Part shown: piece after piece, positions 4,200 through 54,084 of the stretch
How the letters are laid out: each line of letters starts with the position of its first letter
How positions within the stretch are numbered: the first letter of the stretch is position 1
Source: an uncultured Acidobacteriota bacterium
GTDB lineage: Bacteria; Acidobacteriota; UBA6911
Reading direction: 5' to 3'
Assembly (NCBI GenBank): GCA_963843575.1
Contig: CAWJKZ010000019.1
Location: forward strand, 288,001 to 352,000
Length of the DNA: 64,000 nt
The notes under the pieces: model-generated
The model's input: the letters and a program-made list of their open reading frames with translations, nothing else
Told to the model about the DNA's origin: nothing
Databases searched by the model: none
Position numbers and translations under genes: made by a program

Positions 4200-4265
4200 A
4201 TGATAAAAGGGGTGAAGACCGGCGTCAGTTCACTTGTGCACACCCCATTAGTTTCTCGATGCACA
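4200..4265 (-). promoter_or_regulatory. Island promoter motif copy P1 (faces 4005 gene)
   Basis: Minus strand: TGTGCATCGAGAAAC-N8-TGTGCACAAGTGAAC/TGACG-N17-TATCAT. Distal box is degenerate and box spacing is 23 bp. Confidence 0.65.
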
Positions 4266-4331
4266 TCCGCTCCTTAGGAGCGGCAGTCTCATCCACTCGG
4301 AGTTTCCACCGGGGACGGCGATCCCGCGTTG

Positions 4332-4396
4332 TGAGCATTATCGGACACACGTCTGAGCGATATTGTACAGACATCGGTCTGCGGCGGCCCCATAGT
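4332..4396 (+). promoter_or_regulatory. Island promoter motif copy P2 (faces dodecin)
   Basis: TGAGCATTATCGGAC-N7-TGAGCGATATTGTAC/AGACA-N17-CATAGT. Confidence 0.7.
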
Positions 4397-4516
4397 AGCG
4401 GGCCTGGGCCGCATCGCGGCCCTCCGCACAATGCGTGTCGCAAGCGACGGTTCGTGCGGGTCGGGGAGTCCGCTCCCGCCGGAATTCGGAGTAATGCAAT
4501 TCACAGGAGGTCGTCC

Positions 4517-4720
4517 ATGACAGTAGCAAAAGTCGAGGAAATCAGCGCCACTTCCACCGTGAGTTTTGAGGACGCCATCGGTCAGGGTCTGGCCCGGGCG
4601 GTCAAGACGCTACGCAATGTTCGCAGCGCCTGGGTGAAGGAACAGCACGTGCGCCTCGATGGCAAGAAGATTGTCGAGTATCAGGTGAACATGGCCGTCA
4701 CCTTTGTGCTGGAGGACTAG
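4517..4720 (+). CDS. Dodecin (flavin-binding) family protein
   Basis: AGGAGG RBS, ATG 4517; 67 aa 'ISATSTVSFEDAI...KTLRNVRSAWVKEQ...EYQVNMAVTFVLE'. Confidence 0.9.
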   Translation: MTVAKVEEISATSTVSFEDAIGQGLARAVKTLRNVRSAWVKEQHVRLDGKKIVEYQVNMAVTFVLED

Positions 4721-4874
4721 CCTCGATTTTCACAGTACGGGAACCGACTGACGCCGCTCCCAACCCCCGGGGGTCAGGCGACTTTGCGGATCCGGCCACC
4801 GACGGCGCGGCGCTGCCGATCCTGCATCTCGACGGGTGCACGATTCCCATGGACGCCTGTTTCGTCGGGGGGCA

Positions 4875-4939
4875 CGGGCAATACTGACCAGACGTCTGAG
4901 CACTATCGAACAGACACGCGCTTGTCCTTGGAGTACAAA
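4875..4939 (+). promoter_or_regulatory. Island promoter motif copy P3 (faces PBP/mgtA)
   Basis: CGGGCAATACTGACC-N7-TGAGCACTATCGAAC/AGACA-N17-TACAAA. Confidence 0.75.
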
Positions 4940-5054
4940 CGATTGTGCAGGTTGCGCTCGGGGAGCGGCCAAGCGGGGATGGGGCGTTCCAGGACGCCAA
5001 AGGATTATGCGGCCCTCAGGCAGTGGTGAAATATTCCGACTATTGTACCGGAAG

Positions 5055-7349
5055 ATGAGAAGTGTGCCGCATTTTCCCAAAACCCCCGCGCCCCCCGAAG
5101 CGGCTCATGTCAGGGAGATACACTCCGGAACAGGGGCTCGAACGACCTCGCGGCTGCAGCGCACCCGCGCCTTCGTGGCCGGTCGCCTGCGATCCCCTTG
5201 GTTGCGCCGCATCGTGTTCTTTCTGGCCGCCCCACTGGCGCTGCTTGTGCTTCTCCTCTCGGCGGGACTCATCCGTCACGTCTACTTCGATCGCAGCGGG
5301 CTCCCGGACATCGAGCCGTTCATCCGTTTCGAGCCCCCCACGACAGGCAAGGTCTACGACGCCCGGGGCAAAGTGCTGATCGAGCTGGCACGGGAGTACC
5401 GCCGGGTGGTCTCCTACGACGAGGTGCCCGTCATCGTGCGCCAGGCCATCCTGGCGGCTGAGGACAAGAACTTCTTCGCCCACTCCGGCGTGGAATACCG
5501 TGCGCTTCCGCGGGTGGTGCAAAAGACGGCGGTGCGCTCTCTGGCCGAATGGCGGAAGGGAGGCAGGTTCCGGCTGCTGTTCCCCCAGGGCGGCTCAACT
5601 CTTACGCAACAGCTCGTCCGCGGTTACTTCCTCCAGGGCCGGACGAGCGTCGAGGCCGGCGACGTCCTGTTCCGTGATAGTCTGATCCCACGGCTCCTCT
5701 CCGCCGGTTTGGGGGCGCACGCCACGAACAAGCTCCTGCGGAAGCTCGAGGAGGTGCGCCTGGCGCTCTGGCTCGAGGAGGAGATGCGCCGGCGCTGCGG
5801 ATCGCGGGAGCGAGCCAAGCGCGAGATCTTTGCCCGCTCCGCCAGCTTTCTCTACCTGGGCAACGGCCGCTACGGCTTTGCAGCCGCCTCCGAGTTCTAC
5901 TTCGGCAAGCCCCTGTCGAGCTATACGCCGGAGGATGCGGGGGAGGCGGCGCTACTCGCGGGGATCACCAAGTCGCCCGAGGTCTACGCCCCGGTTGCGG
6001 ACGACCCGCGGCCCCGGCGCCGCCGCAACGAGATCCTGGCTCTGATGGCGCGCAACGGCTACATCCCCGAAGGCCTCGCCAAGCGCTGCCAAGCCGAGCC
6101 GGTCCGTGTGGCTCCCCAGAGCCCGGTCAAGACCCATGCCCCTGCCGCCATCGAGAATGTCTTTGACGAGCTGAAGCAGCACGGCGCGGACCGATTCGGG
6201 ATCGAAGACCTCGTCCAGGGTCGGATCTCGGTCCACTCTACCCTCGACGAGCGGATTCAAACCATCGTGAACGAAGCCCTGGAAAACGGCCTCGCTCGCT
6301 ACGAAACGCGGCACCCCGGGGCGAAGGGATCCATCCAGGGTTCCGTGGTGGCTCTGCGCAACGCGAACGCGGCAATCCTGGCCGAGGCAGGCGGGCGGAA
6401 AGTCTTTAGGGACCGCGAGGCGCGCTACTCCGACTTCAACCGCGTCACGGGCTCCCTGCGGCAGCCGGGCTCGGCGTGGAAGCCTCTGGTCTACCTGGCC
6501 GCGTTCCGCCAAGGCATGGACCTCGCTACCACGGTGCCCGACGAGCCCATCGAGGTGTCCATGGGCACCGATCGGGACGCGAAGTGGATCTCCAACTACG
6601 ATAATCAGTTCAAGGGGCCGATCCCGATCCGCCAGGCACTGGCTGAGTCCCGGAATGCGGTAGCCATTTGGATCACCCGCGAGATCGGCATGGACCAGGT
6701 GATCCGGACCGCCAGGGAAATGGGGATCCGCACCCCGCTGCAGCCCCACATCACAACGGCGCTCGGGGCCTCGGAAGTGCGGCTGCTGGAGCTGGCGGGC
6801 GCCTATCGCAGCATGGCCTCCGGAGTCTTGGCGGAGCCACACGTCATCGATCGCGTGACTGACACCTCCGGGGCGGTGCTCTACGAGGCCCCCATGACGG
6901 CGCGACCGATCGGCTCCGCCGAGTTGACCCTGATCCAGGAGGGGCTACGTGGCGTGGTTCGCCTCCCGGATGGCACCGCCCACAGTCTTGACGGCCGCGA
7001 CTTCCCGGTCCCGGTTATGGGCAAGACGGGAACGACGAGCGACTTTCGCGACGCGCTTTTCGTGGGGTCCACTTACGGGACGCAGGGGATCACGGTGGCG
7101 GTCCGGATCGGCTTCGATGACAACCGCACGCTGGGCGAGAAGGAGACTGGAGGGCGCGCGGCGCTGCCGATCTTTCGCGAGATCATGCTCCGTGTCTATC
7201 GGGACAGACTGGTGGGGCCGGCACCGCATTTTCCCCGTGAGATCGAAAAGGGGATCGACGGGTACCTCGCGGAGCAGGCCTTGCTGGAAGCGGGGCGTGA
7301 CACGCCGCCGCCGCCGGCTTCGACAACGGCCTCATCGCTCCGCCAGTGA
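5055..7349 (+). CDS. Class A penicillin-binding protein (transglycosylase/transpeptidase, PBP1A-like)
   Basis: TM anchor; GT51 motifs EDKNF..HSG and GGSTLTQQL; transpeptidase motifs SAWK, SRN and KTG. Start uncertain. Confidence 0.88.
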   Translation: MRSVPHFPKTPAPPEAAHVREIHSGTGARTTSRLQRTRAFVAGRLRSPWLRRIVFFLAAPLALLVLLLSAGLIRHVYFDRSGLPDIEPFIRFEPPTTGKVYDARGKVLIELAREYRRVVSYDEVPVIVRQAILAAEDKNFFAHSGVEYRALPRVVQKTAVRSLAEWRKGGRFRLLFPQGGSTLTQQLVRGYFLQGRTSVEAGDVLFRDSLIPRLLSAGLGAHATNKLLRKLEEVRLALWLEEEMRRRCGSRERAKREIFARSASFLYLGNGRYGFAAASEFYFGKPLSSYTPEDAGEAALLAGITKSPEVYAPVADDPRPRRRRNEILALMARNGYIPEGLAKRCQAEPVRVAPQSPVKTHAPAAIENVFDELKQHGADRFGIEDLVQGRISVHSTLDERIQTIVNEALENGLARYETRHPGAKGSIQGSVVALRNANAAILAEAGGRKVFRDREARYSDFNRVTGSLRQPGSAWKPLVYLAAFRQGMDLATTVPDEPIEVSMGTDRDAKWISNYDNQFKGPIPIRQALAESRNAVAIWITREIGMDQVIRTAREMGIRTPLQPHITTALGASEVRLLELAGAYRSMASGVLAEPHVIDRVTDTSGAVLYEAPMTARPIGSAELTLIQEGLRGVVRLPDGTAHSLDGRDFPVPVMGKTGTTSDFRDALFVGSTYGTQGITVAVRIGFDDNRTLGEKETGGRAALPIFREIMLRVYRDRLVGPAPHFPREIEKGIDGYLAEQALLEAGRDTPPPPASTTASSLRQ

Positions 7350-7373: not shown

Positions 7374-9918
7374 ATGGAAAAACGAGAAACTCCTTTAGAG
7401 GGCTTCTGGGATAAGCCGCTGCAGGACCTGCTTCAACTTCTGCAGGCAACCCCGGCCGGGCTGACTACCGACGAGGCGAAACGGCGCGTTGCGTCTTTAT
7501 GGCCCAAACAGCCTCGTGCAGGAGTCGCGCTTCGCAGGCTTGCTCGCCTTCCTCCGCTTCTTTGCCAATCCTCTCGTCGTCATCCTTCTCGTTGCCAGCG
7601 GCATATCCCTGGGACTGGGGGACCCGGTCGGTGGGCTGATCATCATCGCCATGGTCCTGCTCAGCGTTCTGCTGAACTTCTTCATGGAATTCCAGGCTCG
7701 ACACGCGGTGGAAGAGATTCGGAAGCAGGTTGCCACAACCGCTGCCGTTATGCGTGACGGGCAGGAACAGGAACTGCCGATAGCAGAGCTGGTCCCGGGG
7801 GATATCGTCCGGCTCAATGCTGGAGACCTTGTGCCGGCGGACGCGCGTCTGCTGGATGTAAAGGATCTGCACGTGCGCGAGTCGGCGCTCACCGGGGAGT
7901 CGCTGCCCGTCGAGAAGGCAGCGCACGATCTTCCGGAGGGGAAACACGCCATTGCCGACGCAAGCAACAGCGTGTTCCTGGGCACTGCGGTTCAGACAGG
8001 GATGGGCACCGCGGTCATCGTCCGCACAGGCCGAGGTACTGCGCTCGGAGGGATCGCGCAGCGTTTGGCTGCGCGGCCGCCGGAGACCGAGTTCGGCCGT
8101 GGCATACGCCACTTTGGGCTGATGATCACCCGGGTGATCATGCTGCTTGTGCTTTTCGTTCTGCTGGTAAACCTCTACTTCCACCGTCCGCTGCTGGAGT
8201 CCTTCCTCTTCGCAGTCGCCCTGGCGGTAGGGATGACCCCTGAGATGATGCCGATGATCATCACCGTCACCCTGGCCCAGGGTGCGAGGCGGATGACCAA
8301 AAAGAAGGTTCTCGTCAAGCAACTTGCGGCAATCGAGGATTTCGGCAGCGTGACGATCCTCTGCAGCGATAAGACGGGCACACTGACCGAAGGCGAGATC
8401 GTGCTGGACCGGCACGTGGATGTCCTGGGGAAGGAGGATGAGAACGTTCTGCGGCTCATCTACCTGAACAGCTACTTTGAAGCGGGCATCAAGAGCCCCC
8501 TGGACGATGCCGTCCTGAAGCACGAGCACCCTAAGATTGTGGAGTATGTCAAGGTGGACGAGATCCCCTTCGACTTCAACCGCAAGCGCCTTTCGGTGGT
8601 GGTGCGGCATGGCGACGAGCACCTCCTCATTACCAAGGGCGAGGCAGAGGGTATTTTGGGCATCTGCCAAAGCGTGAGCATCGATGGGTCACCCCAGCCG
8701 TTCGATGAAAGCCGGCGCGCTGCGGCGGAGGAGACGTTCAAGAAGTTGAGCGCCGACGGTTACCGGACTCTTGGGGTCGCGGTGCTGAAAGTGGACAAGC
8801 GGGATGCCTACACCCCGGCGGATGAGCGGGATATGACGCTGGCCGGGTTCGCGGCATTCCTGGACCCGCCCAAGGAAGGAGTTCATTCCGTTCTGGAGGC
8901 GCTGAAACAGAATGGCATCTCCGTGGTCATCATGACCGGCGACAACCAGTATGTGACACAGAAGATAGCGCACGACGTCGGGCTGCCGGCAGACCGCATT
9001 CTCACCGGGAACCAGGTCGACACAATGGACGATGCCGCTCTGGCCTACCAGGCGGAGAATGGCGCCATCTTCGCCCGCGTGTCGCCTGAACAGAAGAACC
9101 GGGTCATCCTCGCTCTGAAGGCGCGTGGGCACGTCGTCGGGTACATGGGGGACGGCATCAACGATGCTCCGTCGCTGCACACGGCGGATGTCGGCATTTC
9201 AGTAATGAACGGCGTGGACGTGGCCAAGGATGCTGCGAAGATCATCCTGCTGGAGAAGGACCTGGCGGTCTTGAACGACGGGGTAATCGAGGGGCGGCGC
9301 TGCTTCGCCAACATCATGAAGTACATCATCATGGGCACCAGCTCGAACTTCGGCAATATGTTCAGTATGGCCGCGGCGTCGCTCTTCCTGCCATTCCTGC
9401 CTATGCTGCCGACGCAGATCCTGCTGAACAACTTTCTGTATGACATCTCGCAGATCAGCATCCCCAGCGACAATGTCGATCCCGCCCTGCTGCACCGGCC
9501 CAAGCGATGGCAGATCGCGTTCATTCGCCAGTTCATGATGATCATCGGTCCCATAAGCTCGATCTACGATTTCCTCACTTTCGGGGTATTGCTCTGGGTG
9601 TTCCACGCTTCCACGAACGCGCCGCTATTCCACACCGGATGGTTCGTGGAATCCCTGGCGACACAGACGCTGGTTGTGTTTGTGATCCGGACGGCAGGCA
9701 ACCCGCTCAAGAGCCGTCCCAGCCGGCCGCTGCTCATAGGCGTGTTCGTCGTCGTTGCTATCGCCGTTGTGTTGCCGTACACGCCGCTCGGGAGCCTGCT
9801 GGGGTTTATCCCGCTGCCGGTGCCGCTGTTGGGTGCGATCGCGTTTCTTGCCGTGACCTACCTCCTGCTGGTGCAGGCCGTTAAGTCCTGGTTCTATCGC
9901 CGGCACGCGCTGCTTTGA
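7374..9918 (+). CDS. mgtA: Mg2+-importing P-type ATPase (frameshift near 7485)
   Basis: TGES, PEMMPM, DKTGTLT, TGDN, GDGINDAP and SSNFGN motifs. The N-terminus (MEKRET...GLTTDEAKRR) lies in the 7374 frame and continues as LRLYGPN in the 7489 frame. Confidence 0.9.
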
Positions 9919-9944: not shown

Positions 9945-10009
9945 TGAGCAATTTTGACCGGATTTGTGAGCAGTACTGAACTGACATGCGAATTACTCGG
10001 GGGTATAAG
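9945..10009 (+). promoter_or_regulatory. Island promoter motif copy P4 (near-consensus)
   Basis: TGAGCAATTTTGACC-N7-TGAGCAGTACTGAAC/TGACA-N17-TATAAG. Confidence 0.9.
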
Positions 10010-10181
10010 AAGTGTGTCTCGAGTGGACCGCGGGGGTCGGGTGTGTTCGAATGAGCGGCCTACCGGTACGGGAGTCCCTTACAGCGACTCAACCTACTGA
10101 GGCACCGAGGGTGGCGGAAGTTGTCGAGAAAAAACAGATCGACGCGTGGTTTTGCATAGTTCGTTAGGTTTGGGAAATGAT

Positions 10182-10787
10182 ATGAAGAAACTATTGGGAC
10201 TCTTCGCCTTGACAACGCTGGCTTTTGCCCAGGGGGGAACGATCGGCAGCGGCACCAGCATATCGGTTCGGACCAGTGAAAGAATCGATGTAAAGAAGAG
10301 CGACGGCCGGGTATTCACCGGCGTTGTAGATCAGGATGTGAGGGATGCGAACAGCCGCGTTGCTATTCCAAGGGGTTCGCAGGTGGAGCTGGCCGTGAAG
10401 AGACTGGCACAGAGTGATCTGGTGCTCGATTTGGAATCGGTCACCGTAGGCGGGCATCGGTATGCGGTAACAGCGGCCGATGCTGTGATGGATAAAGAAC
10501 GGCGGGATGGTATCGGTAAGAACCAGCGGACCGCCGAGTATATCGGCGGCGGGGCGTTGCTGGGCACGATCATTGGCGCGATTGCCGGCGGAGGAAAAGG
10601 CGCCGCAATCGGCGCAGCGGCGGGAGCGGGGGCGGGAGCGGGCACGCAGGTCCTGACCCGAGGCAAGAAGGTGAACGTTCCCGCCGAGTCCTTGTTGACG
10701 TTCCGTTTGGAGAAGTCGCTCCAGATGGGAGTGGCGGACAGTGGGATCACTCGCAACGGCCGCCATTATCACAAGACGATTCGGTAG
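10182..10787 (+). CDS. Secreted protein with glycine-zipper segment
   Basis: Signal peptide MKKLLGLFALTTLAFAQ; 'GGGALLGTIIGAIAGGGKGAAIGAAAGAGAG'. Paralog of the 19122 gene. Confidence 0.8.
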   Translation: MKKLLGLFALTTLAFAQGGTIGSGTSISVRTSERIDVKKSDGRVFTGVVDQDVRDANSRVAIPRGSQVELAVKRLAQSDLVLDLESVTVGGHRYAVTAADAVMDKERRDGIGKNQRTAEYIGGGALLGTIIGAIAGGGKGAAIGAAAGAGAGAGTQVLTRGKKVNVPAESLLTFRLEKSLQMGVADSGITRNGRHYHKTIR

Positions 10788-11319: not shown

Positions 11320-11976
11320 ATGGAGAACAAAAAGACCCAGCCTGTCGATTGGGAAGCTCTGCTCAACGGCATCACACGGGGGAAGACCGTTCTGGAATGT
11401 GGGGCGGACCGCAAGATCTTCCGACAAGGACAACCTGCGGATTCCCTATTCTACCTGCGGCGAGGCAAGGTGAAGCTCTCAGTAATATCCCAACAGGGCA
11501 AAGAAGCGATTGTCGCTATTCTGAGCGCCGGTGAGTTTTTCGGCGAGGGGGGCCTTGCCGGTCAACCACTGCGTATGGCATCGGCTGTTGCGATGACAGA
11601 TTGCACCATTGACAAGATTGAGAAGTCGGTGATGACGCGAATGCTTCACGAACAGCACGACGTCTCGGAATTGTTTGTCAAGCATCTGCTTTCACGCAAC
11701 GTCCGATACGAAGCTGATCTCGTGGACCAGCTTTTCAACTCGAGCGAAAAGCGGCTGGCTCGGATTCTCTTGCTGCTTTCCCATTTCGGCAAGGAAAGCA
11801 GGGCTGAACCTGTAATTCCCAGAGTGAATCAGGATACCTTGGCACAAATGGTCGGCACGACCCGGTCGCGCATCAGTCATTTCATGAACAGGTTCAGGGA
11901 GCATGGCTTTATCGAGTACGACGACGTCGGATTGACCGTCCACAGCAGCCTACTAAGCGTGGTACTCCACGATTAA
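11320..11976 (+). CDS. Crp/Fnr family transcriptional regulator
   Basis: cNMP-binding domain (GEFFGE...PLRMASA), 'SSEKRLARILL' and HTH 'QDTLAQMVGTTRSRISHFMNRFR'; GGAGG RBS. Confidence 0.92.
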   Translation: MENKKTQPVDWEALLNGITRGKTVLECGADRKIFRQGQPADSLFYLRRGKVKLSVISQQGKEAIVAILSAGEFFGEGGLAGQPLRMASAVAMTDCTIDKIEKSVMTRMLHEQHDVSELFVKHLLSRNVRYEADLVDQLFNSSEKRLARILLLLSHFGKESRAEPVIPRVNQDTLAQMVGTTRSRISHFMNRFREHGFIEYDDVGLTVHSSLLSVVLHD

Positions 11977-13916: not shown

Positions 13917-13925
13917 GGACCGGAG

Positions 13926-14253
13926 ATGAAAAGAGTCAGCGACACGTACAGTTCGAGAAAGGAAAAACTCCAAGAAACCAACATGGGAGTTGAGGCTTTA
14001 TGTCGCGGGACAGACTGCAAGATCGTTGCAGGCATTCGCCAATCTGAAGCGGATCTGCGAGGAATACCTTGATGGCAGATATCAGATTGAGGTCGTTGAT
14101 CTAATGAAAAACCCGGAACTCGCCAAGGGCGACCAGATTTTCGCGCTTCCGACTCTCGTGCGGAAGCTTCCGGAGCCGGTCCGGAAGATCATTGGGGATC
14201 TGTCGAATACCGAACGTGTACTGGTTGGCCTCGATCTGCGCCCACGCGCCTGA
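13926..14253 (+). CDS. kaiB: KaiB protein, copy 1
   Basis: '[14 protein letters not shown]...[29 protein letters not shown]'. ATG 13926 after GGAG is one base out of frame (A-run), so the ORF track starts at 13990. Confidence 0.9.
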
Positions 14254-14261
14254 GGAATGTC

Positions 14262-14621: not shown

Positions 14622-14646
14622 GCGCAAAATGGCTGGATAAGAGAGT

Positions 14647-34723: not shown

Positions 34724-34760
34724 AGCTGTTGCAGGGCGCGGGTCCGAGGGTCGGCGCGCG

Positions 34761-44243: not shown

Positions 44244-44585
44244 TCAGGCGTCGGCTATTTTAACCTTGGCGTCCGGGCTGGTTCCTTTGATGACAACCTT
44301 CACAGCATCTTCCATCGGGTCTTTGAAGGGAACCTCGATCCGGAGCAGGCCGTGCTCGTAGGTCGCTTCTGCTTTGACGGGTTTCACCGGCCAGCCTAAA
44401 GCCAGTGCCGAAACATACTCGACGTCCCTTGCCGGCGCTGTCAGGTGAATGCTGTCTTCCAGGATCTTCACATCGATGCTCTCTGTTGGCGCTCCCGGGA
44501 TGGCGAACTCTACTACCAGCTTGTTGGTCTCCGCGTCCGCATACGCCACCGTATTTGGCGCAACCTTGATTCGATATTCCGACAT
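44244..44585 (-). CDS. Hsp20/alpha-crystallin small heat-shock protein
   Basis: 'LVVEFAIPG...IDVKI...AEATYEHGLLRIEVP'; AGAGG RBS. Confidence 0.85.
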   Translation of the reverse strand: MSEYRIKVAPNTVAYADAETNKLVVEFAIPGAPTESIDVKILEDSIHLTAPARDVEYVSALALGWPVKPVKAEATYEHGLLRIEVPFKDPMEDAVKVVIKGTSPDAKVKIADA

Positions 44586-46479: not shown

Positions 46480-47235
46480 CTACGTGCTGCTTCGCATCCA
46501 GTTCTTGAGAATGTCGATGGGAACCGGGAAGACCACTGTCGTATTTTTCTCTACACCGATTTCGGTCAAGGTCTGCAGGTAGCGTAACTGAAGAGCTACC
46601 GGCTCCGTGTCTATGATGCCGGCGGCTTCCGCCAGTTTTGCCGCAGCCAGGCACTCCCCGTCCGCGTGGATGATCTTGGCTCTTTTCTCGCGCTCGGCTT
46701 CGGCCTGCTTGGCCATGGCACGCTGCATTTCCTGGGGCAGATCGACCTGCTTGACCTCCACGAGACTTACCTTGATCCCCCACGCGTCGGTGTGCTGATC
46801 GAGAATTGCCTGGAGCTTGACATTGAGTGTCTCTCGCCGGCTAAGCAAATCGTCCAAATCGACCTGGCCGAGAACCGAGCGCAAGGTCGTTTGCGCCAGT
46901 TGCGAGGTTGCGTAGAGATAATTCTCGACCTCCACGACGGCCCGAGGCGCATTCATGACCCTGAAATAGATGATCGCATTAACCTTCAGGGAAACGTTGT
47001 CGCGGGAAATGATGTCTTGGGGCGGCACTTCCAGGGTTACGGTGCGCAGACTGACCCGGACCATCCTGAAGACAGGCCAGAATATGAATACCAATCCTGG
47101 GCCCAGGGCCTCTGGCAGAAGACGGCCAAGCCTGAAGGCCACGCCGCGTTCGTATTCCTTGAGGATGTTTATCGTGCTCCAGACATAGAGAACGACAACG
47201 GCTATTCCAAAGAGCCAAAACATCGTAGGATCCAT
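46480..47235 (-). CDS. SPFH/Band 7 (stomatin/slipin) protein
   Basis: '[12 protein letters not shown]', 'SRDNVS', '[10 protein letters not shown]', '[11 protein letters not shown]' and 'LQLRYLQTL'. Confidence 0.92.
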
Positions 47236-47434: not shown

Positions 47435-47800
47435 TCATGCCGATTTGTCCGTCACAGCCCTCGGGGCGAAGCCTGCAACCGCTGCCTGCTCATTGTCATA
47501 AACCTGGAACACGGTCAAGAGCTTCGTGATTACCAGGAGTTCCCTTATTTTCCTGGTGAGGTTCAGGAGTTTTAGCTCCCCGCCCTCTTTCGTGACCGTC
47601 GTGTACGTTCTAACCAGCTCACCAATGCCCGAGCTGTCGACATAGTTCACGTCCGTCAAGTTCAGTACGACCTTCTTTCCACCATTCGCCAGAAGGTCGC
47701 TGATGGTGTGTCGAATGTTCGCCGTGGCTTCACCCAGGGTGATCTTACCGCTGATGTCCAGAACATGAACATCCCCAACCGCACGTGCGTGTATCTCCAT
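47435..47800 (-). CDS. STAS-domain anti-sigma factor antagonist
   Basis: 'VNYVDSSGIGELV' with the conserved phosphorylatable Ser. Confidence 0.88.
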   Translation of the reverse strand: MEIHARAVGDVHVLDISGKITLGEATANIRHTISDLLANGGKKVVLNLTDVNYVDSSGIGELVRTYTTVTKEGGELKLLNLTRKIRELLVITKLLTVFQVYDNEQAAVAGFAPRAVTDKSA

Positions 47801-47843: not shown

Positions 47844-48737
47844 TCAGTGATATGCGGGCGTCGTTTTGTGCCGGAATTCGTCAACGCTCGATGAGTTCGG
47901 CACGCCTGCTCTTGGTCGCTTTACCTTGCTCGCAAGGCCTACCGCCTCGAGGGCACAGATGAGGTACCACCCAATGTCAGTCTGCCACCACCGCAGACCG
48001 AGGCGCGCCGATCCGGCGTTTTTGTGGTGATTTCTGTGCCAGTTTTCGCCCCACGCCGTCAATTGCAGCGGTCCGAGCCACCAGACGTTCATGCTGGAGT
48101 CCCCTTCAGTGGAGCGGCCCAGGTGAGTCAGACTGTTGACGAGACTCTGCATGTGCAGCGAATAGACCAGACGAATTGCGCCCAGCCAGAAGAAACCCTG
48201 CCATCCGAGCACGAGACCACAGCAGAGGGATAGCAGGATCACGGGAACTTCAGCAAAGGTCCAAATCTTGTACTCCCGGCGAGTCAACTCCGGGCACCAC
48301 CTTTTCCTGTCCGCCGGAGCTGACTGGTAAAGCCAGCGCAAGTGCGCCCACCAGAAGCCCCCCTGCTTAGGACTGGAGATGTCTTCCGGGGTATCCGTGC
48401 GTGCGTGATGCAGCCGGTGGTAGGCAACCCAACTGGCCGGCGCTCCCGAGCCGTTGAACATGGTCCAGAAAATAAGCAGGTGCTCAACGGCCTTGTTCAT
48501 CCTGAGAGTGCGGTGCGCCAGCATTCGATGGTAACAGACCGTCGTACCGAACCCGCCAAAGGCTGTGAGCAGGAGGGTTATGCCCAGAACCCGCATGCTG
48601 GGGAGGGGAAAGAGAATGAGACCGGCCAAAGCCAGGACGTGAATCAGCACCAGATAAAGAGCAACCCCCATCTTACCTCGGGCAGGCCTCCAGAAGGGCT
48701 GTTCCCACGGCCGAACCGCGTTAGTGGTCTTGTACAT
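47844..48737 (-). CDS. Membrane fatty-acid desaturase (delta-9 type)
   Basis: Three His boxes HRMLAH, HRLHH and HRNHH; 'GFWWAH' and 'WWQTDIGW'. Confidence 0.88.
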   Translation of the reverse strand: MYKTTNAVRPWEQPFWRPARGKMGVALYLVLIHVLALAGLILFPLPSMRVLGITLLLTAFGGFGTTVCYHRMLAHRTLRMNKAVEHLLIFWTMFNGSGAPASWVAYHRLHHARTDTPEDISSPKQGGFWWAHLRWLYQSAPADRKRWCPELTRREYKIWTFAEVPVILLSLCCGLVLGWQGFFWLGAIRLVYSLHMQSLVNSLTHLGRSTEGDSSMNVWWLGPLQLTAWGENWHRNHHKNAGSARLGLRWWQTDIGWYLICALEAVGLASKVKRPRAGVPNSSSVDEFRHKTTPAYH

Positions 48738-49268: not shown

Positions 49269-49493
49269 ATGGGCGCATGCAGTTTTGACCGGTTGTTGCA
49301 GTTCATCAACGAGCGGTTGGACCTGGACGGGCAGCTTGAGGTCTACGATCACCTTGACCAATGCCCTATTTGCCGTGATGCCGTTTGCCAGCTTTTTCGT
49401 GAGCGGGATGGAGCATTCGAAACGGCAGCAGAATCTCCGGGCTGCGTACAGATGATCGCGGACGTTCTTGCAGGCATGGCGTGCCAGGCTTGA
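49269..49493 (+). CDS. Small zf-HC2 (zinc anti-sigma-like) protein
   Basis: GGAGG RBS; HxxxCxxC 'HLDQCPIC' preceded by an N-terminal Cys. Confidence 0.7.
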   Translation: MGACSFDRLLQFINERLDLDGQLEVYDHLDQCPICRDAVCQLFRERDGAFETAAESPGCVQMIADVLAGMACQA

Positions 49494-49582
49494 GGTTCAA
49501 GCCTGTGGTGCTCGAAGATACGCCTGGGACAATGGCACTTTCGGGTCGGGCCCCAGACACATATGCAGAATCCGAAGCTGTA

Positions 49583-51572
49583 ATGGAGCAAGCCCCGGCT
49601 AAGCGAATTGCGTGCAAACGCCTGACCGTAGTCCTGATCAAGCCCTCCAAGTATGATGACGAAGGCTACGTCATTCGTCATTTCCGTGGCGTCCTGCCAA
49701 GCAACACGCTGGCTTGCCTTTCGAGCCTCACCGAAGATCTGAAGCGCCGCAGGGTGCTTGGCCGCAAACTCGAAATAAGGATCCGAATCTTCGATGATAC
49801 GGTCCAGCCGATCCCTGTCGACAGGATCATTCGTTCCAACAAACTCCCTCGAAACCGGACGGTCGTCGCCCTGGTCGGTGTTCAATCCAACCAGTTTCCT
49901 CGCGCTGCCGACCTGGCCCGCCGCTTTCGTGCGGGAGGGCTGCAGGTCCTTATCGGAGGATTTCACGTCAGCGGCATCCTGGCTCTGTTTTCGGAAATCA
50001 GGCCTGAAATCCAGGAATTGATCGATCTCGGTGTCACCGTGGTGAAAGGTGAGGTGGAGGAGACGTGGGGAGATATTCTCGAGGATGCACTCCACGACAG
50101 GCTCAAACCGATCTACGACTTTCTGGACAGGAAGCCCGATCTCTCCGACAAGCCCGTGCCGATGATCCATCGCTCCTACCTGAAGCGCTTCATCACTTCA
50201 AATTTCGGTACGATCGACTGCGGCCGCGGCTGCCCCTACAACTGCAGCTTCTGCACGATCATTAACGTGCAGGGGCACAAAGTGCGCTTCCGGTCCGTTG
50301 AGACGCTGACCAGCGCCATTCGCGAAAACTATCATCGGCATGGCATCGACTACTACTTCTTCACCGACGACAACTTCGCACGGAATGCCTGCTGGCGTGA
50401 GGTTTTCGAAATGCTGGCACGCCTGCGAGCTGAAGAGGACATTTCCATCCGCTTCATGATCCAGGTGGACACACAGTCCTACAAGATCCCGGATTTCGTC
50501 GAGCTGGCTTCTCGCGCCGGCTGCACCCAGGTTTTCATCGGGATGGAGAGCATCAATCCGAGAAACCTGAAAGCCGCGGGCAAGGCCCAGAACAAGGTGC
50601 AGGAGTACAGGGAGATGATCGCGGCGTGGCATGCGGCAAAGATCGCCACGCACATCGCCTACATCATCGGTTTCCCGTTCGACACTCCCGAATCGGTTGA
50701 AGAGGACGTAAACAGCCTGAAGCAGGAACTCGGGGTGGAGCAGGTATCATTTTTCATGCTGACTGCCTCTGCCCGGCTCGCAGGATCACGCGCGCATGGT
50801 GCGCGCCGGGGAGTACATGGATCCCGATCTGAACACGTATGATTCCTTCCATGAGACCACGCGGCACCCGAACTTCGCTCCCGGTGAGTGGTATGCCACG
50901 TACCGGAAAGCCTGGCGGAGCTTCTACTCCTTTGATTACATGCGGCACGTCCTGGCGAACGCCAATCCCGAGAATTACTGGAATATCCTCCGCAATTTCA
51001 TCTGGTACAAGAACTCCGTGCAAATCGAGGGCGGCCATCCGATGATCCATGGGTTGTTCCGCATGAAAGACCGCACAGACCGCCGCCCTGGATTTCCCAT
51101 CGAATCACGTCTCAGGCACTTTGTGCGGCGTTTTCGCGATGTGCGCAGTCTCGCGCGGAAGTGGATCGCGCTGGTGCTGGAGATGGAGGAGCTTTGGCTG
51201 CAAACGCGCATCCGCAGCAAGGCCGAGCTCCGTCTTATATTCGAGTTGAAGCGGGCGCGCGAGGAGGTCAACCGCAACTTGCGGACGGCCGAACTGCAGA
51301 TCGCTCATTACCGGGCGAAAGTTCATGTGCCGGAGCTGCGCGTACCCTCCAGGCTGTCGTTGGCTTTCCGGGACCTCAATCTCGATCTGGCAAAACGGGT
51401 GACCTACTCCCGGGCGGATCTCCAAGTGTTTTGGAACAGGACCTGGAAAAGGTGGCGCCGCCGGCAGATCCTCCTCATTCGCCCGCACAGGGTATTCCTG
51501 AATTTTCTTCGCGACGCCGAGTTGCTGTTGCTGTTTGCAGTAGCGCTTCTGCGTGCCGAACAGCACTCTTGA
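49583..51572 (+). CDS. B12-binding radical SAM protein (hopanoid-methylase-like); frameshift near 50765
   Basis: 'GGFHVSG', 'GRGCPYNCSFC', 'FFTDDNF', 'FIGMESIN' and 'YIIGFP'. Continues '(P)LPGSQDH...' into ORF 50796. Start uncertain. Confidence 0.82.
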
Positions 51573-51820: not shown

Positions 51821-52127
51821 CAGAACGCGGATCTTCGCGGATTTTACGGATTCACGCGGATCGGCCGCGCCCGGCATTCCTCCCCGAGGGCCGGCGCTTC
51901 GCGCCGATGCATCAAAGCCCGGCTCCCGCAGGAAAGCGCGCGGTTGGAAGGATGCCGCTTCGATTCAAGGTCCACGTTTTCCTGCAGGAGCCGGGCTTTG
52001 ATGCGTGCCAAAGGCAGCCCTCGGGGAGGAATGCCGGGCGCGGCCTGCCAGCAGGCAGCAATCCGCGTGTATCCGCGCAAATCCGCGTCCTGGAATCGTC
52101 AGCGTATTTCTGAACACGAGTACTAAG
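51821..52127. repeat. Long nested palindromic element (ACGCGGAT family, copy C)
   Basis: Perfect 28-bp IR 51863-51890/52018-52045; inner 27-bp IR 51909-51935/51978-52004 (1 mismatch); outer CGCGGAT/ATCCGCG repeats. Confidence 0.85.
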
Positions 52128-52131
52128 CTGA

Positions 52132-52196
52132 TGAGCAATATTGCCCAGGCCGGTGATCAGTACTGCACTGACACGCGCCCCATCCGAAGCTATAAA
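52132..52196 (+). promoter_or_regulatory. Island promoter motif copy P15 (faces VWA-sortase)
   Basis: TGAGCAATATTGCCC-N7-TGATCAGTACTGCAC/TGACA-N17-TATAAA. Confidence 0.85.
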
Positions 52197-52287
52197 GACA
52201 TGTGCTTCGAGCTGTCCGCCGGACAGGGCTCAGCACGTCAGATTGGGACTAAACCTTCAGTAGGGGAATGCACGGGGAGGTGAGGTC

Positions 52288-53313
52288 GTGCGGGTTGCGG
52301 TTGTTCTGAGTTCCCGGGCTTACGCAAGGAGGAAGGGTGCCGTCGCACACCTGTGTCTGGCCGCATTATATTCCCTGATCATTTTACCCGGCATTGCGCG
52401 CGCTCAAGAGGCGCCGCCGTCGCAGAGCCAGAGCTGCCAAGGGGACCAGTATACGATAAGTGTGAGCGTTGACATGGTGGTCCTGAACGCGACTGTGGTG
52501 AATCGCAAAGGGGAGCTCGTTTCGGGACTCGGCCAGGGAGACTTTCGGGTTTACGAGGACGGACTCCTCCAAGAGGTTACGTCGTTCAGCCACGAAGACA
52601 TCCCGGTCACGGTCGGCCTGGTCGTCGACAACAGTGGAAGCATGCGGTCCAAGCGCCCCGAAGTCATTTTCGCGGCATTGGCGTTTGCCCGCTCCAGCAA
52701 TGCGGAAGACCAGATGTTCGTGGTCAGTTTCAACGAAAGCGTTTCGTTCGGCCTGCCAGACGACACGCCGTTTACGGATAAGGAGGCTCAACTGAAGGCC
52801 GCCCTGTCCAGGATTGCCGCAAACGGCAAGACGGCCCTCTACGACGCCGTGGCTGCTGCACTCGAACACCTAAAAAAGGGAAATCGGGACAAGAAGGTGC
52901 TGATCGTGATTAGTGATGGAGGCGACAACGCCAGCACGCGCAAACTTGCAGAGATCATGGCCATGGCGGCCCAGTCCGATGCCATCGTCTACACGATTGG
53001 TGTCTTCGATGAGACTGATCCCGACCGCAACCCGGGTGTGCTCAAGCAGCTTGCAAAGACCACGGGTGGCCAGGCTTTCTTTCCCGAATCTGTTAAGGAA
53101 GTCTTCCCTATTTGCAACCAGATCGCTCGTGACATTCGCAACCAGTACTCCCTCGCGTACCTGCCCAAGAATGTGAAGCAGGACGGGACTTATCGGGTCA
53201 TACAGGTAGATGCCGGGACGCCGGGCCGCAAACGTTTGTCCGTCCGCACCCGGGCCGGGTACTATGCACCACTAACACCTGAACGAGTTACGGGAGCCGG
53301 AGCGGTCCCATGA
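52288..53313 (+). CDS. VWA domain protein, acidobacterial type
   Basis: MIDAS 'VDNSGSM', 'TALYDA', 'ISDGGDNAS' and C-terminal 'VRTRAGYY'. Confidence 0.88.
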   Translation: MRVAVVLSSRAYARRKGAVAHLCLAALYSLIILPGIARAQEAPPSQSQSCQGDQYTISVSVDMVVLNATVVNRKGELVSGLGQGDFRVYEDGLLQEVTSFSHEDIPVTVGLVVDNSGSMRSKRPEVIFAALAFARSSNAEDQMFVVSFNESVSFGLPDDTPFTDKEAQLKAALSRIAANGKTALYDAVAAALEHLKKGNRDKKVLIVISDGGDNASTRKLAEIMAMAAQSDAIVYTIGVFDETDPDRNPGVLKQLAKTTGGQAFFPESVKEVFPICNQIARDIRNQYSLAYLPKNVKQDGTYRVIQVDAGTPGRKRLSVRTRAGYYAPLTPERVTGAGAVP

Positions 53314-53984
53314 AGATCCGAATTGAGGAGAGGCGACCTCTTCCGAGGCGAAATAATGTCTTCCTTTGTTGGGGCCGGCGCCTCCTTTTTCTCATCGGCG
53401 CCCTGGCGGTGGGGTACGTCAGCTTCGCTTTCGTCGATGCGAGGCTTTATCAGGCCGCTCAAGCCCGGCGATTTCAACAGGAATTGGACAGCTTGAGAGC
53501 CTCTGCCGGCAGCGAACCCACTCCCCGGTCGCCCCTGCTTCCGCCCGCCGCGAACCATGCGAGAGCTGATATCCCCGGCATCTCCGGGCGAGGAGACTCC
53601 TCGTTGGGGCGGATCGAGATAAAAACCATCGGCCTTGCGGCGATGATCCTCGAAGGTACCGATGGACGAACTCTGCGACACGCGGTAGGGCATATTCCCG
53701 GCACTCCGCTTCCGGGCCAGCAGGGGAATGTGGCCCTCACGGGGCACCGGGACACTTTTTTCAGGCCCTTGCACAATGTCCATAGGGATGACGAAATTAC
53801 CCTGACAACATTGGCAGGAATCTACCGTTATCGAGTGGACTCGACCCGAGTGGTCGAACCCGAGGACACCGAAGTGCTGGCTGATTCCAGCGATGCAGTC
53901 CTCACCCTGGTGACCTGTTATCCGTTTTATTATGTAGGCCCCGCACCCAGGAGATTTGTCGTTCGCGCCAGCCTGATTCATTGA
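53310..53984 (+). CDS. Class D-like sortase
   Basis: N-terminal TM; catalytic 'TGHRDTFF', 'LTLVTCYPF' and 'APRRFVV'; ATGA overlap with the VWA gene. Confidence 0.9.
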   Translation: MKIRIEERRPLPRRNNVFLCWGRRLLFLIGALAVGYVSFAFVDARLYQAAQARRFQQELDSLRASAGSEPTPRSPLLPPAANHARADIPGISGRGDSSLGRIEIKTIGLAAMILEGTDGRTLRHAVGHIPGTPLPGQQGNVALTGHRDTFFRPLHNVHRDDEITLTTLAGIYRYRVDSTRVVEPEDTEVLADSSDAVLTLVTCYPFYYVGPAPRRFVVRASLIH

Positions 53985-54018
53985 TTCGCCCCTGCAGCCG
54001 AGTTCGCCTCGCTTCGAG

Positions 54019-54084
54019 TGAGCTCTTTTGACCACACCGGCGAGCAATACTGAACTGACGAGTGCTGCGTCCCGAGGGTATAAA
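54019..54084 (+). promoter_or_regulatory. Island promoter motif copy P16
   Basis: TGAGCTCTTTTGACC-N7-CGAGCAATACTGAAC/TGACG-N18-TATAAA. Confidence 0.85.

Follow-up and report, generated by a model that had tools for sequence, protein, structure and literature searches.

The window analysed here is a stretch of 64,000 nucleotides on contig C19 of the 6.68-Mb genome of an uncultured Acidobacteriota bacterium (G000). A sequence-only reading of this DNA had listed 16 copies of a tandem-box promoter motif, and inspection of the sequence found the motif at every one of the 16 positions, in the orientation claimed. Box 1 reads TGAGCAAT.ATTGACCA and box 2 reads TGAGCAGT.ACTGAACT. As had been reported, the second box starts 22 bp after the first in 15 of the copies, with an offset of 23 bp in the remaining copy (P1). 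We built a 37-bp matrix with fixed box spacing from the 15 regular window sites. Scanning the window with this matrix returned those 15 sites and one weak site that had been overlooked. The features of the window are listed below, with matrix scores in bits.

4200–4265, minus strand: P1 tandem boxes and promoter, with degenerate boxes TGTGCATCGAGAAAC / TGTGCACAAGTGAAC at a 23-bp offset; fails the fixed-spacing matrix
2254–4005, minus strand: P1 target, gene for a 583-aa protein of no known family
4332–4368, plus strand: tandem boxes ahead of the dodecin gene, 40.4 bits
4517–4720, plus strand: dodecin gene (Dodecin, E 2.9e-21)
4875–4911, plus strand: tandem boxes ahead of a class A PBP (5064–7349) and a P-type ATPase (7489–9918), 42.2 bits
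9945–9981, plus strand: perfect-consensus tandem boxes (0 mismatches) ahead of a Gly-zipper protein (10182–10787) and then Crp-B, 56.7 bits
11320–11976, plus strand: Crp-B, proposed regulator of the Crp/Fnr family, 218 aa (cNMP_binding E 3.5e-20, HTH_Crp_2 E 5.6e-10)
12176–15825, plus strand: KaiC (12176–13846), KaiB (14026–14253), KaiB (14262–14621) and a PAS-HisKA_3 histidine kinase (14647–15825), directly 3' of Crp-B
15971–16007, plus strand: tandem boxes ahead of a YflT-like stress protein (16192–16794), 49.4 bits
22204–22240, plus strand: tandem boxes ahead of a DUF202 membrane protein (22421–22645), 51.2 bits
23219–23255, plus strand: tandem boxes ahead of a 41-aa lmo0937-family protein (23371–23496) and Ysc84-CsbD (23708–24700), 43.8 bits
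29693–29729, plus strand: tandem boxes ahead of a PRC-barrel protein (29797–30705) and a cupin (30814–31206), 49.6 bits
31614–31650, minus strand: weak extra tandem site, 28.6 bits, with no -35/-10 and no convincing gene behind it
33313–33349, plus strand: tandem boxes ahead of a 95-aa protein (33437–33724), a holin-X-type protein (33729–34160) and a weak DUF3618 match (34127–34546), 48.8 bits
35010–35046, minus strand: tandem boxes ahead of a small ORF with no family found (34568–34798, minus), 51.8 bits
44770–44806, minus strand: tandem boxes ahead of Hsp20 (44244–44585, minus), 53.4 bits
44820–44856, plus strand: tandem boxes ahead of a 421-aa protein of no family (45031–46296), back-to-back with the Hsp20 site, 43.9 bits
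48824–48860, minus strand: tandem boxes ahead of a fatty-acid desaturase (47844–48737), a STAS protein (47435–47800) and an SPFH/Band 7 protein (46480–47235), all minus, 53.6 bits
49178–49214, plus strand: tandem boxes ahead of a zf-HC2-like 74-aa protein (49269–49493) and a radical SAM enzyme (49505–50842), 45.0 bits
52132–52168, plus strand: tandem boxes ahead of a VWA protein (52288–53313) and a sortase (53310–53984), 44.6 bits
54019–54055, plus strand: tandem boxes ahead of a 90-aa protein (54062–54334), a secreted 229-aa protein (54419–55108), groES (55255–55551) and groEL (55607–57232), 49.0 bits

The two-box promoter repeat is real. A search with the literal consensus, allowing up to 3 mismatches, gave 3 matches, compared to 0 in 100 dinucleotide shuffles. 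Across the whole G000 genome the matrix gave 28 matches at 25 bits or more, compared to 0 in a reversed-sequence control, and 56 at 12 bits or more, compared to 1. The original estimate of 16 copies in about 50 kb was both too few and too short, since 20 of the 28 sites fall within about 71–72 kb and the other 8 are dispersed on contigs other than C19. This cluster begins about 17 kb before the window, with four additional matrix sites 3.8–17.2 kb upstream of it (C19:270783+, 272093+, 282667- and 284213+), and occupies 71.3 kb, or 1.07% of the genome (binomial P ~1e-33). The stretch from 58 to 64 kb of the window, said to hold no copies, was empty even at 12 bits.

Gene calls were made with a crude in-house caller, which called 86.6% of the genome coding. 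Against these calls, 25 of the 28 sites touch no gene and the other three overlap ORFs of 43–53 aa. In 27 of 28 cases the next feature, 6–488 bp downstream, is a gene start on the same strand; only the weak site at 31650, behind which lies an 84-aa ORF with no family found, departs from this. The sites are intergenic and gene-facing, as proposed. Spacing between boxes was 22 bp in 26/26 pairs in G000 and in 127/128 pairs in the MAG loci (0 pairs in the control). A box is hardly ever found alone in the window; the 2 isolated matches both lie within coding sequence. Conservation is confined to the boxes and hexamers and does not extend to spacers or flanks, in agreement with the idea of binding sites under selection rather than a mobile repeat.

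Each box is 16 bp long, is bounded by TG on one side and CA on the other, and has a palindromic core, CAGT.ACTG. The self-complementary cores CAGT.ACTG and CAAT.(A/T)TTG are conserved, and two divergent sites in G007 have as their common box 1 a perfect palindrome, TGGTCAATATTGACCA. A CTGACA-like -35 followed at 17–18 bp by a TATAA-type -10 had been predicted, and this architecture was borne out on 188 sites: the spacer is 17 bp in 127, 18 bp in 37 and of other lengths in 10, with no good -10 in 14. Beyond the matrix, 160 unique sites of other genomes show T/G/A/C/A at positions 38–42 with frequencies of 0.72/0.93/0.91/0.93/0.69, and GGTATAA 17–18 bp further on. Counted from the predicted -10, the box centres lie at -41.5 and -63.5, which are the class II and class I positions of Crp/Fnr activators. 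At class II promoters the activator normally stands in for the -35 element, so the well-conserved -35 would be unusual for promoters of this class. The fixed register of box 2 and the -35 element fits the need of a promoter-bound activator, and it is this geometry that suggests activation rather than repression.

The sites mark a regulon for stress protection that is conserved among uncultured soil Acidobacteria. Pfam and NCBIfam searches recovered most of the target families that had been named (dodecin, Ysc84-CsbD, lmo0937-family, Hsp20, PRC barrel, groES/groEL). The exception was "YqjD-like": the 95-aa protein at 33437–33724 has no family match, and it is the next gene that is of holin-X/YqjE type. 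Further targets include YflT, DUF3309 small membrane proteins, STAS proteins and c-di-GMP enzymes, and two conserved regulon proteins of no known family carry signal peptides. The proposed stress-type regulon is supported, and in other genera and families orthologs of these genes again have the boxes in front of them. Among G001, G014 and G017 (family f1), G040 (f8) and G033 (f7), copies of the motif lie ahead of the OmpA-like, Crp, Hsp20, 421-aa, groES, Ysc84-CsbD, STAS, desaturase, radical-SAM and lmo0937 orthologs. The pairing of site and gene is kept for lmo0937-family/Ysc84-CsbD (the 23219 site) and for Hsp20 in G001 and G017, for the 421-aa gene in G014 and G017, and for zf-HC2-like/radical SAM in G001 and G040. 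In G017, groES lies directly behind a site, and in G001 the ortholog of the 583-aa gene lies behind a strong one. The only site of G371 precedes an ortholog of the secreted 229-aa protein, and a DUF202 ortholog is present in a mini-cluster in G192.

G000 encodes three Crp/Fnr paralogs, two of them inside the cluster: Crp-A (C19:271243-271902), Crp-B, and a third at C9:114953-115597. The paralogs differ in their sensor domains and have one DNA-reading helix in common, which is TTRSRISHF in Crp-B. In 110 distinct sequences of the subfamily this helix reads GTTRSRvSHFMN, with at least 90% conservation at every capital-letter position, consistent with one shared motif. Sequence matches of the regulator in PDB include GlxR and M. 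tuberculosis Crp (E ~1e-17), CRP (E ~1e-10) and 2zcw (E 1.2e-6), and NCBIfam scores are far under the cut-offs for CRP, NtcA, FNR and FixK. In the phosphate-binding loop R-[IM]-[AS] stands in place of R-S/T-A, which makes cAMP binding doubtful.

Motif and regulator occur together. Among 41 relatives, the genomes with the motif and those with a Crp-B ortholog (identity 65% or more, E at most 5e-89) are the same 15; the identity cut-off was chosen post hoc, at a gap that separates the groups (≥65% vs ≤57%). Among 137 genomes of the class, the ortholog is present in 42 and a fragment of it in G373, and all 43 carry the motif. In the 94 genomes without the regulator, convincing sites were detected in only two. 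One of these, G391, has one site, and no ortholog was found in its 81% complete assembly. In the other, G400, four contigs carry five good sites between them; in this 84% complete assembly of 20 contigs no Crp-B ortholog was found, the best match being 29% identical. We also examined 79 loci (806 kb) picked by the regulator gene alone. These contain 165 sites (0 in the control), or about 205 per Mb, compared to 4.2 per Mb in the whole of G000. They hold 103 regulator genes; the nearest site is no more than 500 bp away for 55 of these and no more than 2 kb away for 80. In genomes with a single site, the gap between site and regulator gene is 154 bp (G006), 206 bp (G371), 1.8 kb (G013) or 7.5 kb (G192), and the target genes vary, leaving the regulator as the common denominator. 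It should also be noted that co-occurrence and proximity cannot fully tell regulator from regulated gene, since the regulator genes are themselves members of the regulon.

On sequence grounds, we consider it probable that lineage-specific Crp/Fnr-type regulators, encoded beside the boxes, bind them and switch on the regulon. Each copy would be a promoter with two 16-bp sites for dimers of one such regulator; the 22-bp offset would place both dimers on one face of the helix, where they would probably cooperate in binding and bring in RNA polymerase. The promoter would combine a good -35 (CTGACA) with a deliberately incomplete -10 (TATAA, not T). The putative regulon comprises about 28 promoters, 20 of them in the 72-kb low-GC cluster, with products of general-stress and dormancy type. 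Regulator genes among its members would create a feedback loop, and paralogs with one helix and differing sensor domains may allow several signals to converge on one promoter type. The KaiC, KaiB and histidine-kinase genes are a possible input module that the motif does not require: KaiC orthologs with 84% identity or more are found only in G000, G007 and G010 of the 41 genomes, each adjoining a Crp-B ortholog. The sequence-only reading had suggested an activator, with which the geometry agrees; it named no regulator, and the evidence points to the Crp/Fnr subfamily in the cluster.

The boxes can also be read in another way. Each has a conserved skew, with AG at positions 3–4 and AC or AA at positions 13–14 where CT is expected, and a symmetric homodimer leaves this skew unexplained. 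Read as direct repeats (TGAGC / TGACC / TGAGC / TGAAC, offsets 10, 12 and 10), they agree at 5/6 positions, compared to 5/8 for the dyad, so that the direct-repeat reading fits as well as the dyad. It is unlikely, though conceivable, that another reader of direct repeats (of AraC/XylS type, of OmpR/PhoB type or the cluster's NarL-type regulator) binds the boxes and that the Crp-like genes are mere regulon members. On this view the skew makes each box resemble a pair of direct TGAnC half-sites at a distance of 10 bp, and the two boxes are themselves direct repeats. Regulator genes placed downstream of their own motif would also be expected if they were mere targets, and in G400 sites are present where no Crp ortholog was found. 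However, no HTH_18 (AraC-type) or Trans_reg_C (OmpR-type) domain was found in 68 distinct proteins of the window and its flanks, and the NarL-type regulator has close orthologs in just 7 of the 15 motif genomes (KaiC in 3). Furthermore, the site neighbourhoods of G006, G013 and G371 have only the Crp ortholog in common, and direct repeats leave the self-complementary core unexplained.

If the Crp/Fnr-type protein does bind the boxes, it might do so as a repressor or anti-activator of an intrinsically active core promoter, with two dimers that occupy -71 to -34 and hinder the alpha subunits or sigma region 4 until they are released by a stress signal. The -35 (CTGACA, 5/6) and 17-bp spacer are near the housekeeping consensus of the tRNA promoters of G000 (TTGACA-N17/18-TAnnnT), so good a promoter might need no activator, and box 2 covers 1–2 bp of the -35 hexamer. 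Nevertheless, we regard repression as quite improbable. Repressors usually cover the -35/-10 region or the start, with variable placement, whereas here the sites are upstream in an invariant register. The -10 reads TATAA[A/G/C]; of 164 anchored sites just 7% have T as the sixth base, and the lack of this key last T in 93% of sites is as expected of an activator-dependent promoter. Crp-family stress regulators such as SdrP are also reported as class II activators, in the text of PMC8465061.

The same -10 bears on the sigma factor. Use of the housekeeping sigma had been proposed; the -35 fits TTGACA, but the -10 mostly lacks the sixth-position T and is in this respect unlike the tRNA promoters. 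An alternative or second sigma (group 2 or ECF) might read GGTATAA as its specificity element, with the boxes as auxiliary upstream elements. GGGTAT resembles the -10 of SigB-type sigmas, and STAS-domain proteins, which are partner-switching parts, belong to the regulon. However, the four G000 sigma factors with region 3 are RpoD, a second RpoD-like protein, FliA/WhiG and RpoH-like, with none of SigB/F type, and none of them co-occurs with the motif. The RpoD-like paralog is found in motif-bearing and motif-free relatives alike and is without a close ortholog in G033 and G040, which carry the motif. Nor are 37 bp of rigidly spaced, conserved sequence ahead of a -35 a sigma element. We find this explanation very unlikely. 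Lastly, a promoter cassette spread by duplication in a horizontally acquired island, recently descended and with no dedicated regulator, would suit the distinct composition of the cluster (GC 58–61% vs 64%, GC3 0.69 vs 0.79, coding density 79% vs 87%) and the patchy distribution within the family, but is barely credible given unconserved spacers and flanks beside specific positions conserved at 90% or more in the 160 unique sites from many genomes, invariant spacing, and the same site-gene pairs across families f1, f7 and f8.

Our searches turned up no publication and no previously described motif or regulon matching this one, in keeping with the earlier suggestion of a candidate undescribed regulon. 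The targets are of the same kinds as those of the SigB (Firmicutes), EcfG-NepR-PhyR (Alphaproteobacteria) and RpoS regulons; CsbD, YflT, Hsp20, PRC-barrel and small membrane stress proteins, STAS proteins, chaperonins and c-di-GMP enzymes are families of regulons of SigB/EcfG/RpoS type. Unlike in those sigma-run regulons, the promoters here have a TTGACA-like -35, a 17-bp spacer, a TATAA-type -10 and 37 bp of upstream boxes, and control is probably by an activator rather than a sigma swap. XylS/AraC operators consist of two asymmetric direct repeats of 15–17 bp, about 21 bp apart, the proximal one touching a σ70-type -35. The boxes share this layout of direct repeats with the proximal one at the -35, but they have a palindromic core, and no AraC-family protein is among the 68 proteins scanned.

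The regulator has the two-domain Crp/Fnr fold of E. coli CRP, whose site (TGTGA-N6-TCACA) has the same 16-bp core size and TG...CA ends as the boxes. Class II and tandem class III CRP promoters likewise have a site centred at -41.5, as predicted here, and an upstream site on the same face. Unlike CRP sites, the motif (TGAGCAAT.ATTGACCA) is conserved at its inner bases too, two sites are obligatory, at an offset of exactly 22 bp, the half-sites are conservedly skewed and the -35 is retained. The recognition helix, aligned with GlxR and CRP, is R-S-R-[VI]-S-H as opposed to R-E-T-V-G-R in CRP, a motif that the text of PMC8465061 quotes as SRETVGR.

Also comparable are SdrP/TTHA1359 of Thermus thermophilus, DdrI of Deinococcus radiodurans and Cmr of M. 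tuberculosis, Crp-family proteins that serve stress genes rather than carbon catabolism. The SdrP account in PMC8465061 describes a probable class II activator of the oxidative-stress response with sites adjoining or overlapping the -35, and that of DdrI in PMC11253593 describes DNA binding without cAMP. These proteins differ from the regulator here in having R-E-T-V-type helices and single sites and in belonging to other phyla; the TTHA1359 motif (AWTGTRA-N6-TYACAWT) differs as well, and the similarity of SdrP-type proteins is at superfamily level only (2zcw). For Cmr, PMC5758884 assigns specificity to discriminator bases at positions 4 and 13 of the motif; the skew of the boxes described here falls near these, at positions 3–4 and 13–14.

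The tandem-box motif was present at all 16 positions assigned to it by the sequence-only reading, each in the orientation proposed. The 22-bp offset between boxes held for 15 of the 16; in the remaining copy, P1, two weak boxes are offset by 23 bp. A search with the literal consensus, allowing up to three mismatches, gave three matches, compared with none across 100 shuffles. A 37-bp matrix built from the 15 regular sites (threshold at least 25 bits, reversed sequence as the control) recovered all 15 in the window plus one weak addition and, as the earlier reading had found, detected no site in 58-64 kb. Applied to the whole source assembly, G000 (6.68 Mb, 27 contigs, 64% GC), the matrix returned 28 sites, compared with none in the reversed control, and 20 of these are packed into 71.3 kb, or 1.07% of the genome.

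Sites outside the regular set of the window, and neighbouring genes.
Window 4265 (-): P1, degenerate site
Window 31614-31650 (-): orphan site (the weak addition at 31650-), 28.6 bits, with no -35 or -10 and no convincing gene downstream; 210 bp upstream of a BrkB-family gene at 31860 and inverted to that gene
C19:270783 (+), 272093 (+), 282667 (-) and 284213 (+): four sites upstream of the window on the same contig
C9, C10, C11 (two), C13, C14, C21 and C23: eight sites on other contigs
Window 11320-11976: Crp-B, Crp/Fnr-type protein
C19:271243-271902: Crp-A, Crp/Fnr-type protein
Window 12176-15825 (+): KaiC-KaiB-KaiB-PAS/HisKA_3 kinase operon, directly 3' of Crp-B
C10:633274-634722 (-): second KaiC paralog, 55% identical, behind a tandem-box site
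L001:6652-11170 (flank upstream in the cluster; C19:274652-279170): 1283-aa CheB methylesterase-CheR methyltransferase-PAS-HisKA_3 kinase fusion, then a NarL-type response regulator, then a second PAS kinase
Window 26869-28671 (-): 600-aa protein with an AI-2E-family transporter domain and C-terminal B12-binding domains, an unusual fusion
Window 39300-43926 (+): two neighbouring genes (758 and 778 aa), each with GH94 supersandwich domains; the first adds a glucoamylase-like domain and the second a GH94 catalytic domain, and the two look like one large glucan phosphorylase/synthase-type gene, split or duplicated

Gene context was judged against our own crude gene calls (6,144 genes, with 86.6% of the genome called as coding). 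Of the 28 sites, 25 are clear of called genes and three overlap ORFs of 43-53 aa. The proposal that copies face a downstream gene was borne out, with a same-strand start 6-488 bp downstream for 27 of the 28. The cluster that holds most sites (C19:240000-350000, i.e. window 1-58000 and sequence upstream) has a GC content of 58-61%, compared with 64% for the genome; its GC3 is 0.69 and its coding density 79%, compared with 0.79 and 87% for the rest of the genome. GC climbs to 65-66% from about window 62000.

When the 28 sites of G000 were pooled with 160 unique ones from further genomes, the consensus was ga-TGAGCAATTTTGACCA-gAcgtG-TGAGC(A/C)gTAcTGAAC-TGACAcGCGA-N-gGGTATAA. Conservation extends beyond the search matrix, to TGACA (positions 38-42, 0.69-0.93) and to the -10 (0.91-0.98). 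The predicted CTGACA-like -35 with a 17-18 bp spacer was also upheld when the spacer was measured on these 188 sites: it is 17 bp in 127, 18 bp in 37 and of other lengths in 10, with no good -10 found in 14. Boxes 1 and 2 were scanned separately at every offset from 15 to 40. All 26 pairs in G000 and 127 of 128 in other loci had an offset of 22 bp, with no control pairs, and P1 was the only other spacing seen in G000. Just two isolated boxes occur in the window, both within coding sequence, and we reject the idea that single boxes work alone.

Each box is 16 bp long, ends in TG...CA and is built around a self-complementary core, CAAT.(A/T)TTG or CAGT.ACTG. When the boxes are checked as dyads, five of the eight position pairs are complementary, and there is a conserved skew, with AG at positions 3-4 and AC or AA at 13-14. 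Because of this skew, the boxes can be read about equally well as direct repeats of TGAnC, with offsets of 10, 12 and 10. A perfect palindrome, TGGTCAATATTGACCA, occurs in G007, where it serves as the box 1 common to two divergent sites.

The -10 is found about 59-65 nt past the start of box 1 (e.g. window 10004-10009). If it is taken as -12 to -7, the centres lie, relative to the predicted start site, at -41.5 for box 2 and at -63.5 for box 1, which together with the rigid 22-bp spacing is the placement of a class II (plus class I) site. The -10 itself is TATAA plus A, G or C, and just 7% of 164 anchored sites have T as the sixth base; tRNA promoters of G000 follow TTGACA-N17/18-TAnnnT. This odd -10 could reflect either built-in activator dependence or another sigma specificity, so the promoter sequence does not fix the choice of sigma factor. 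Around the predicted start, about 10 of the G000 sites have a loosely common word, GTG(c/t)CTC(g/c)A (for example at window 10014-10030 and 52199-52215). A common 5' hairpin was dropped as a candidate, as the 50 nt that follow the predicted starts had a mean z of -0.52 against mononucleotide shuffles, with four of 28 leaders below -2. Rfam gave no family at the gathering score over the entire window.

For comparison across genomes, we used a motif pattern allowing up to three mismatches, which in G000 returns precisely the 28 sites. Among 41 genomes (G000 and 40 relatives), 15 had a match, with 1 to 38 copies each (control, 2). Among 274 genomes from other classes of the phylum, six had a single weak match with two or three mismatches (control, 4). 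A site precedes orthologs of the same genes in G001, G014 and G017, which belong to the family of G000, and in G040 and G033, which belong to two further families (f8 and f7). The conserved pairings include the genes for the OmpA-like protein, the Crp-like regulator, Hsp20, the 421-aa protein and groES, and also those for Ysc84-CsbD, STAS, the desaturase, the radical SAM enzyme and the lmo0937 peptide. Retention of the motif ahead of orthologous genes across families excludes a recent repeat and supports the earlier view that these are selected sites rather than a mobile element.

Target genes of the sites in G000.
Window: dodecin
Window: class A PBP and P-type ATPase
Window: Gly-zipper protein, then Crp-B
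Window: YflT-like protein
Window: DUF202
Window: lmo0937-family peptide and Ysc84-CsbD
Window: PRC-barrel protein and cupin
Window: 95-aa protein and holin-X-type protein
Window: Hsp20
Window: 421-aa protein of no known family
Window: fatty-acid desaturase, STAS protein and SPFH protein
Window: zf-HC2-like peptide and radical SAM enzyme
Window: VWA protein and sortase
Window: two proteins of no assigned family, then groES-groEL
Upstream of window: Thivi_2564-family peptide and Crp-A
Upstream of window: OmpA-family protein
Upstream of window: proteins without assigned family
Other contigs: KaiC paralog; DUF3309; second PRC-barrel protein; HlyD-ABC fusion
Other contigs: MT0933-like peptide; second STAS protein; PAS-GGDEF-EAL protein; one protein without family

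The stress families expected among the targets are indeed there (CsbD, YflT, Hsp20, PRC barrel, lmo0937, DUF3309, STAS and groESL), and they give the set the composition of a general-stress or dormancy regulon. Two conserved regulon proteins without a known family are secreted.

Two Crp/Fnr-family genes lie in the cluster, Crp-B and Crp-A, each downstream of a site, and a third paralog lies on C9. Crp-B matches PF00027 (E 3.5e-20) and PF13545 (E 5.6e-10), as does Crp-A (E 9.5e-19 and 1.7e-10), and residues 21-202 of the candidate regulator align to GlxR chains. With a beta-roll sensor-type domain and a Crp-type HTH, the regulator is predicted to belong to the Crp/Fnr superfamily. None of the NCBIfam cut-offs for CRP, FNR, NtcA, FixK, LdrP, PtrA or YeiL is reached; the best scores are 63 bits for NtcA (cut-off 245) and 59.8 for CRP (cut-off 266), the rest being lower. 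Close relatives number in the thousands in metagenomes, all under generic names.

Across 110 distinct sequences, conservation is 90% or higher at each named position of the recognition helix, G-T-T-R-S-R-x-S-H-F-M-N, which agrees with one common motif for all paralogs. CRP-type proteins have R-E-T-V-x-[RK] (PMC8465061), whereas the regulator here has R-S-R-[VI]-S-H, a difference that agrees with a new DNA specificity. Among the variants listed, the phosphate-binding loop reads FFGEG[C/G]LAGQPLR-[I/M]-[A/S]-T-A, with R-T-A only in the C9 paralog; that paralog excepted, the loop does not match the G-E...R-[ST]-A cassette of cAMP-responsive CRP. Two sensor-domain cysteines (GEGC and tdC; Crp-B residues about 78 and 95) are each at least 90% conserved in the same 110 sequences, and the first is replaced by Gly in Crp-B. 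Both are near the pocket equivalent to the cAMP-binding pocket of CRP and could form a redox or metal sensor. Given the differences in sensor domain, the loop without an R-S/T pair and the cysteine pattern, signals may differ between paralogs.

The distribution of the regulator follows that of the motif. Among the 41 genomes, an ortholog at 65% identity or more (E <= 5e-89) occurs in 15, exactly those that carry the motif. The next-best homologs, at 47-57% identity, are in genomes lacking the motif (G031, G035 and G039); the 65% cut-off was chosen after viewing the data, and there is a clear gap between the groups. G034 is counted as motif-negative in these tallies, and no claim depends on it. 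Among 137 genomes of the class, 42 have an ortholog and G373 has a contig-end fragment, and the motif occurs in all 43. In the 94 without an ortholog, five good sites were found in G400 (84% complete) and one in G391 (81% complete), which counts against a Crp-like reader; ten more have chance-like matches with three mismatches, and the control pattern occurs in eight genomes. The G400 sites are on four contigs (C4:8744, C5:35922, C10:71703 and 152090, and C19:16849). Paralogs of a 503-aa protein follow two of these sites, whose -35 region is different (CAGTCG).

We also examined 79 loci picked solely for the regulator gene. All are MAG-derived, mostly labelled Acidobacteriota or Terriglobia, and no cultured member was found among them. 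They contain 165 sites over 806 kb, compared with none in the control, with at least one site in 65 of the 79. For 55 of the 103 regulator genes in these loci a site lies within 500 bp, and for 80 within 2 kb. The layout seen most often, in 44 genes, places a site no more than 400 bp past the regulator stop codon; in 15 cases the site is within 400 bp upstream. In four genomes with a single site, the distance to the regulator gene is 154 bp (G006), 206 bp (G371), 1.8 kb (G013) and 7.5 kb (G192). Their target genes are unlike, leaving the regulator as the common element. Co-occurrence and proximity cannot fully tell a regulator from a regulated gene, and this weighs against the assignment.

Among the other candidates, the NarL-type regulator of the cluster is weakened as the motif reader, as close orthologs occur in only 7 of the 15 motif genomes. 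A second RpoD-like sigma is rejected as the regulon sigma because it occurs with or without the motif. Among sigma factors with a region 3, no dedicated alternative sigma that would run a stress regulon of the SigB, EcfG or RpoS kind was found to track the motif, nor was any SigB/F-type sigma found in G000. No AraC-type (HTH_18) or OmpR-type DNA-binding domain was found in the 68 distinct proteins of the window and flank; a cupin there gives a weak AraC_binding match and has no HTH. KaiC is rejected as an obligatory partner, with close orthologs in 3 of 41 genomes (3 of the 15 motif genomes).

For the Crp-like regulator, we propose that two dimers would occupy -63.5 and -41.5 cooperatively, both facing the same side of the helix, and would activate RNA polymerase at a promoter whose -35 is near consensus and whose -10 lacks the last T. 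As regulator genes lie inside the regulon, feedback would be expected. All of these steps, binding and activation alike, are read from sequence. Against this mechanism, a well-kept -35 is unusual for class II promoters, and the box skew and the equal fit of direct repeats also count as points against it.

KaiC directly follows the Crp-B orthologs in G000, G007 and G010. A Kai-type timer may feed into the regulon, or be fed by it; these are hints and not proof. Taken together, the observations allow a broader reading that we consider doubtful as a whole: a master general-stress or dormancy switch of a large uncultured soil lineage of Terriglobia that does without an alternative sigma factor, in which paralogous Crp-like sensors share an identical DNA-reading head and differ in sensor domain, one being linked genetically with a KaiC-KaiB timer and kinase. 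Pairs of dimers would sit on a rigid two-site promoter, and the skew would mark an oriented, possibly mixed-paralog or tetrameric complex formed by no described Crp/Fnr protein.

Acidobacteriota rank among the most abundant soil bacteria, and we found nothing in print on the regulation of stress survival in this phylum. A literature search confined to articles without their supplements revealed no paper describing the motif, TGAGCA-type Crp/Fnr boxes or, in Acidobacteria, a stress regulon of the Crp type. The finding offers a concrete wiring diagram, open to test, for one widespread uncultured lineage: a DNA motif, a candidate regulator family and about 30 target promoters per genome, covering chaperonins, Hsp20, CsbD-type proteins, membrane and envelope proteins, c-di-GMP enzymes and KaiC. 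With the motif, stress regulons can be annotated in MAGs and metatranscriptomes from drying, rewetting or starving soils can be interpreted, and the regulator and its boxes are open to in vitro work without culture. Sites that are always paired, rigidly spaced and skewed are instructive, too, on the ways in which Crp/Fnr proteins can be placed at promoters.

By analogy, the working scheme proposed here would be that of a Crp/Fnr class II activator regulon with an additional upstream site. In purpose it resembles the SdrP, DdrI and Cmr stress regulons. The regulator appears to be a Crp/Fnr-superfamily protein outside every named subfamily scored, and the system is unusual in its obligatory paired sites, its rigid 22-bp spacing, its skewed half-sites and its several paralogs with one reading head.
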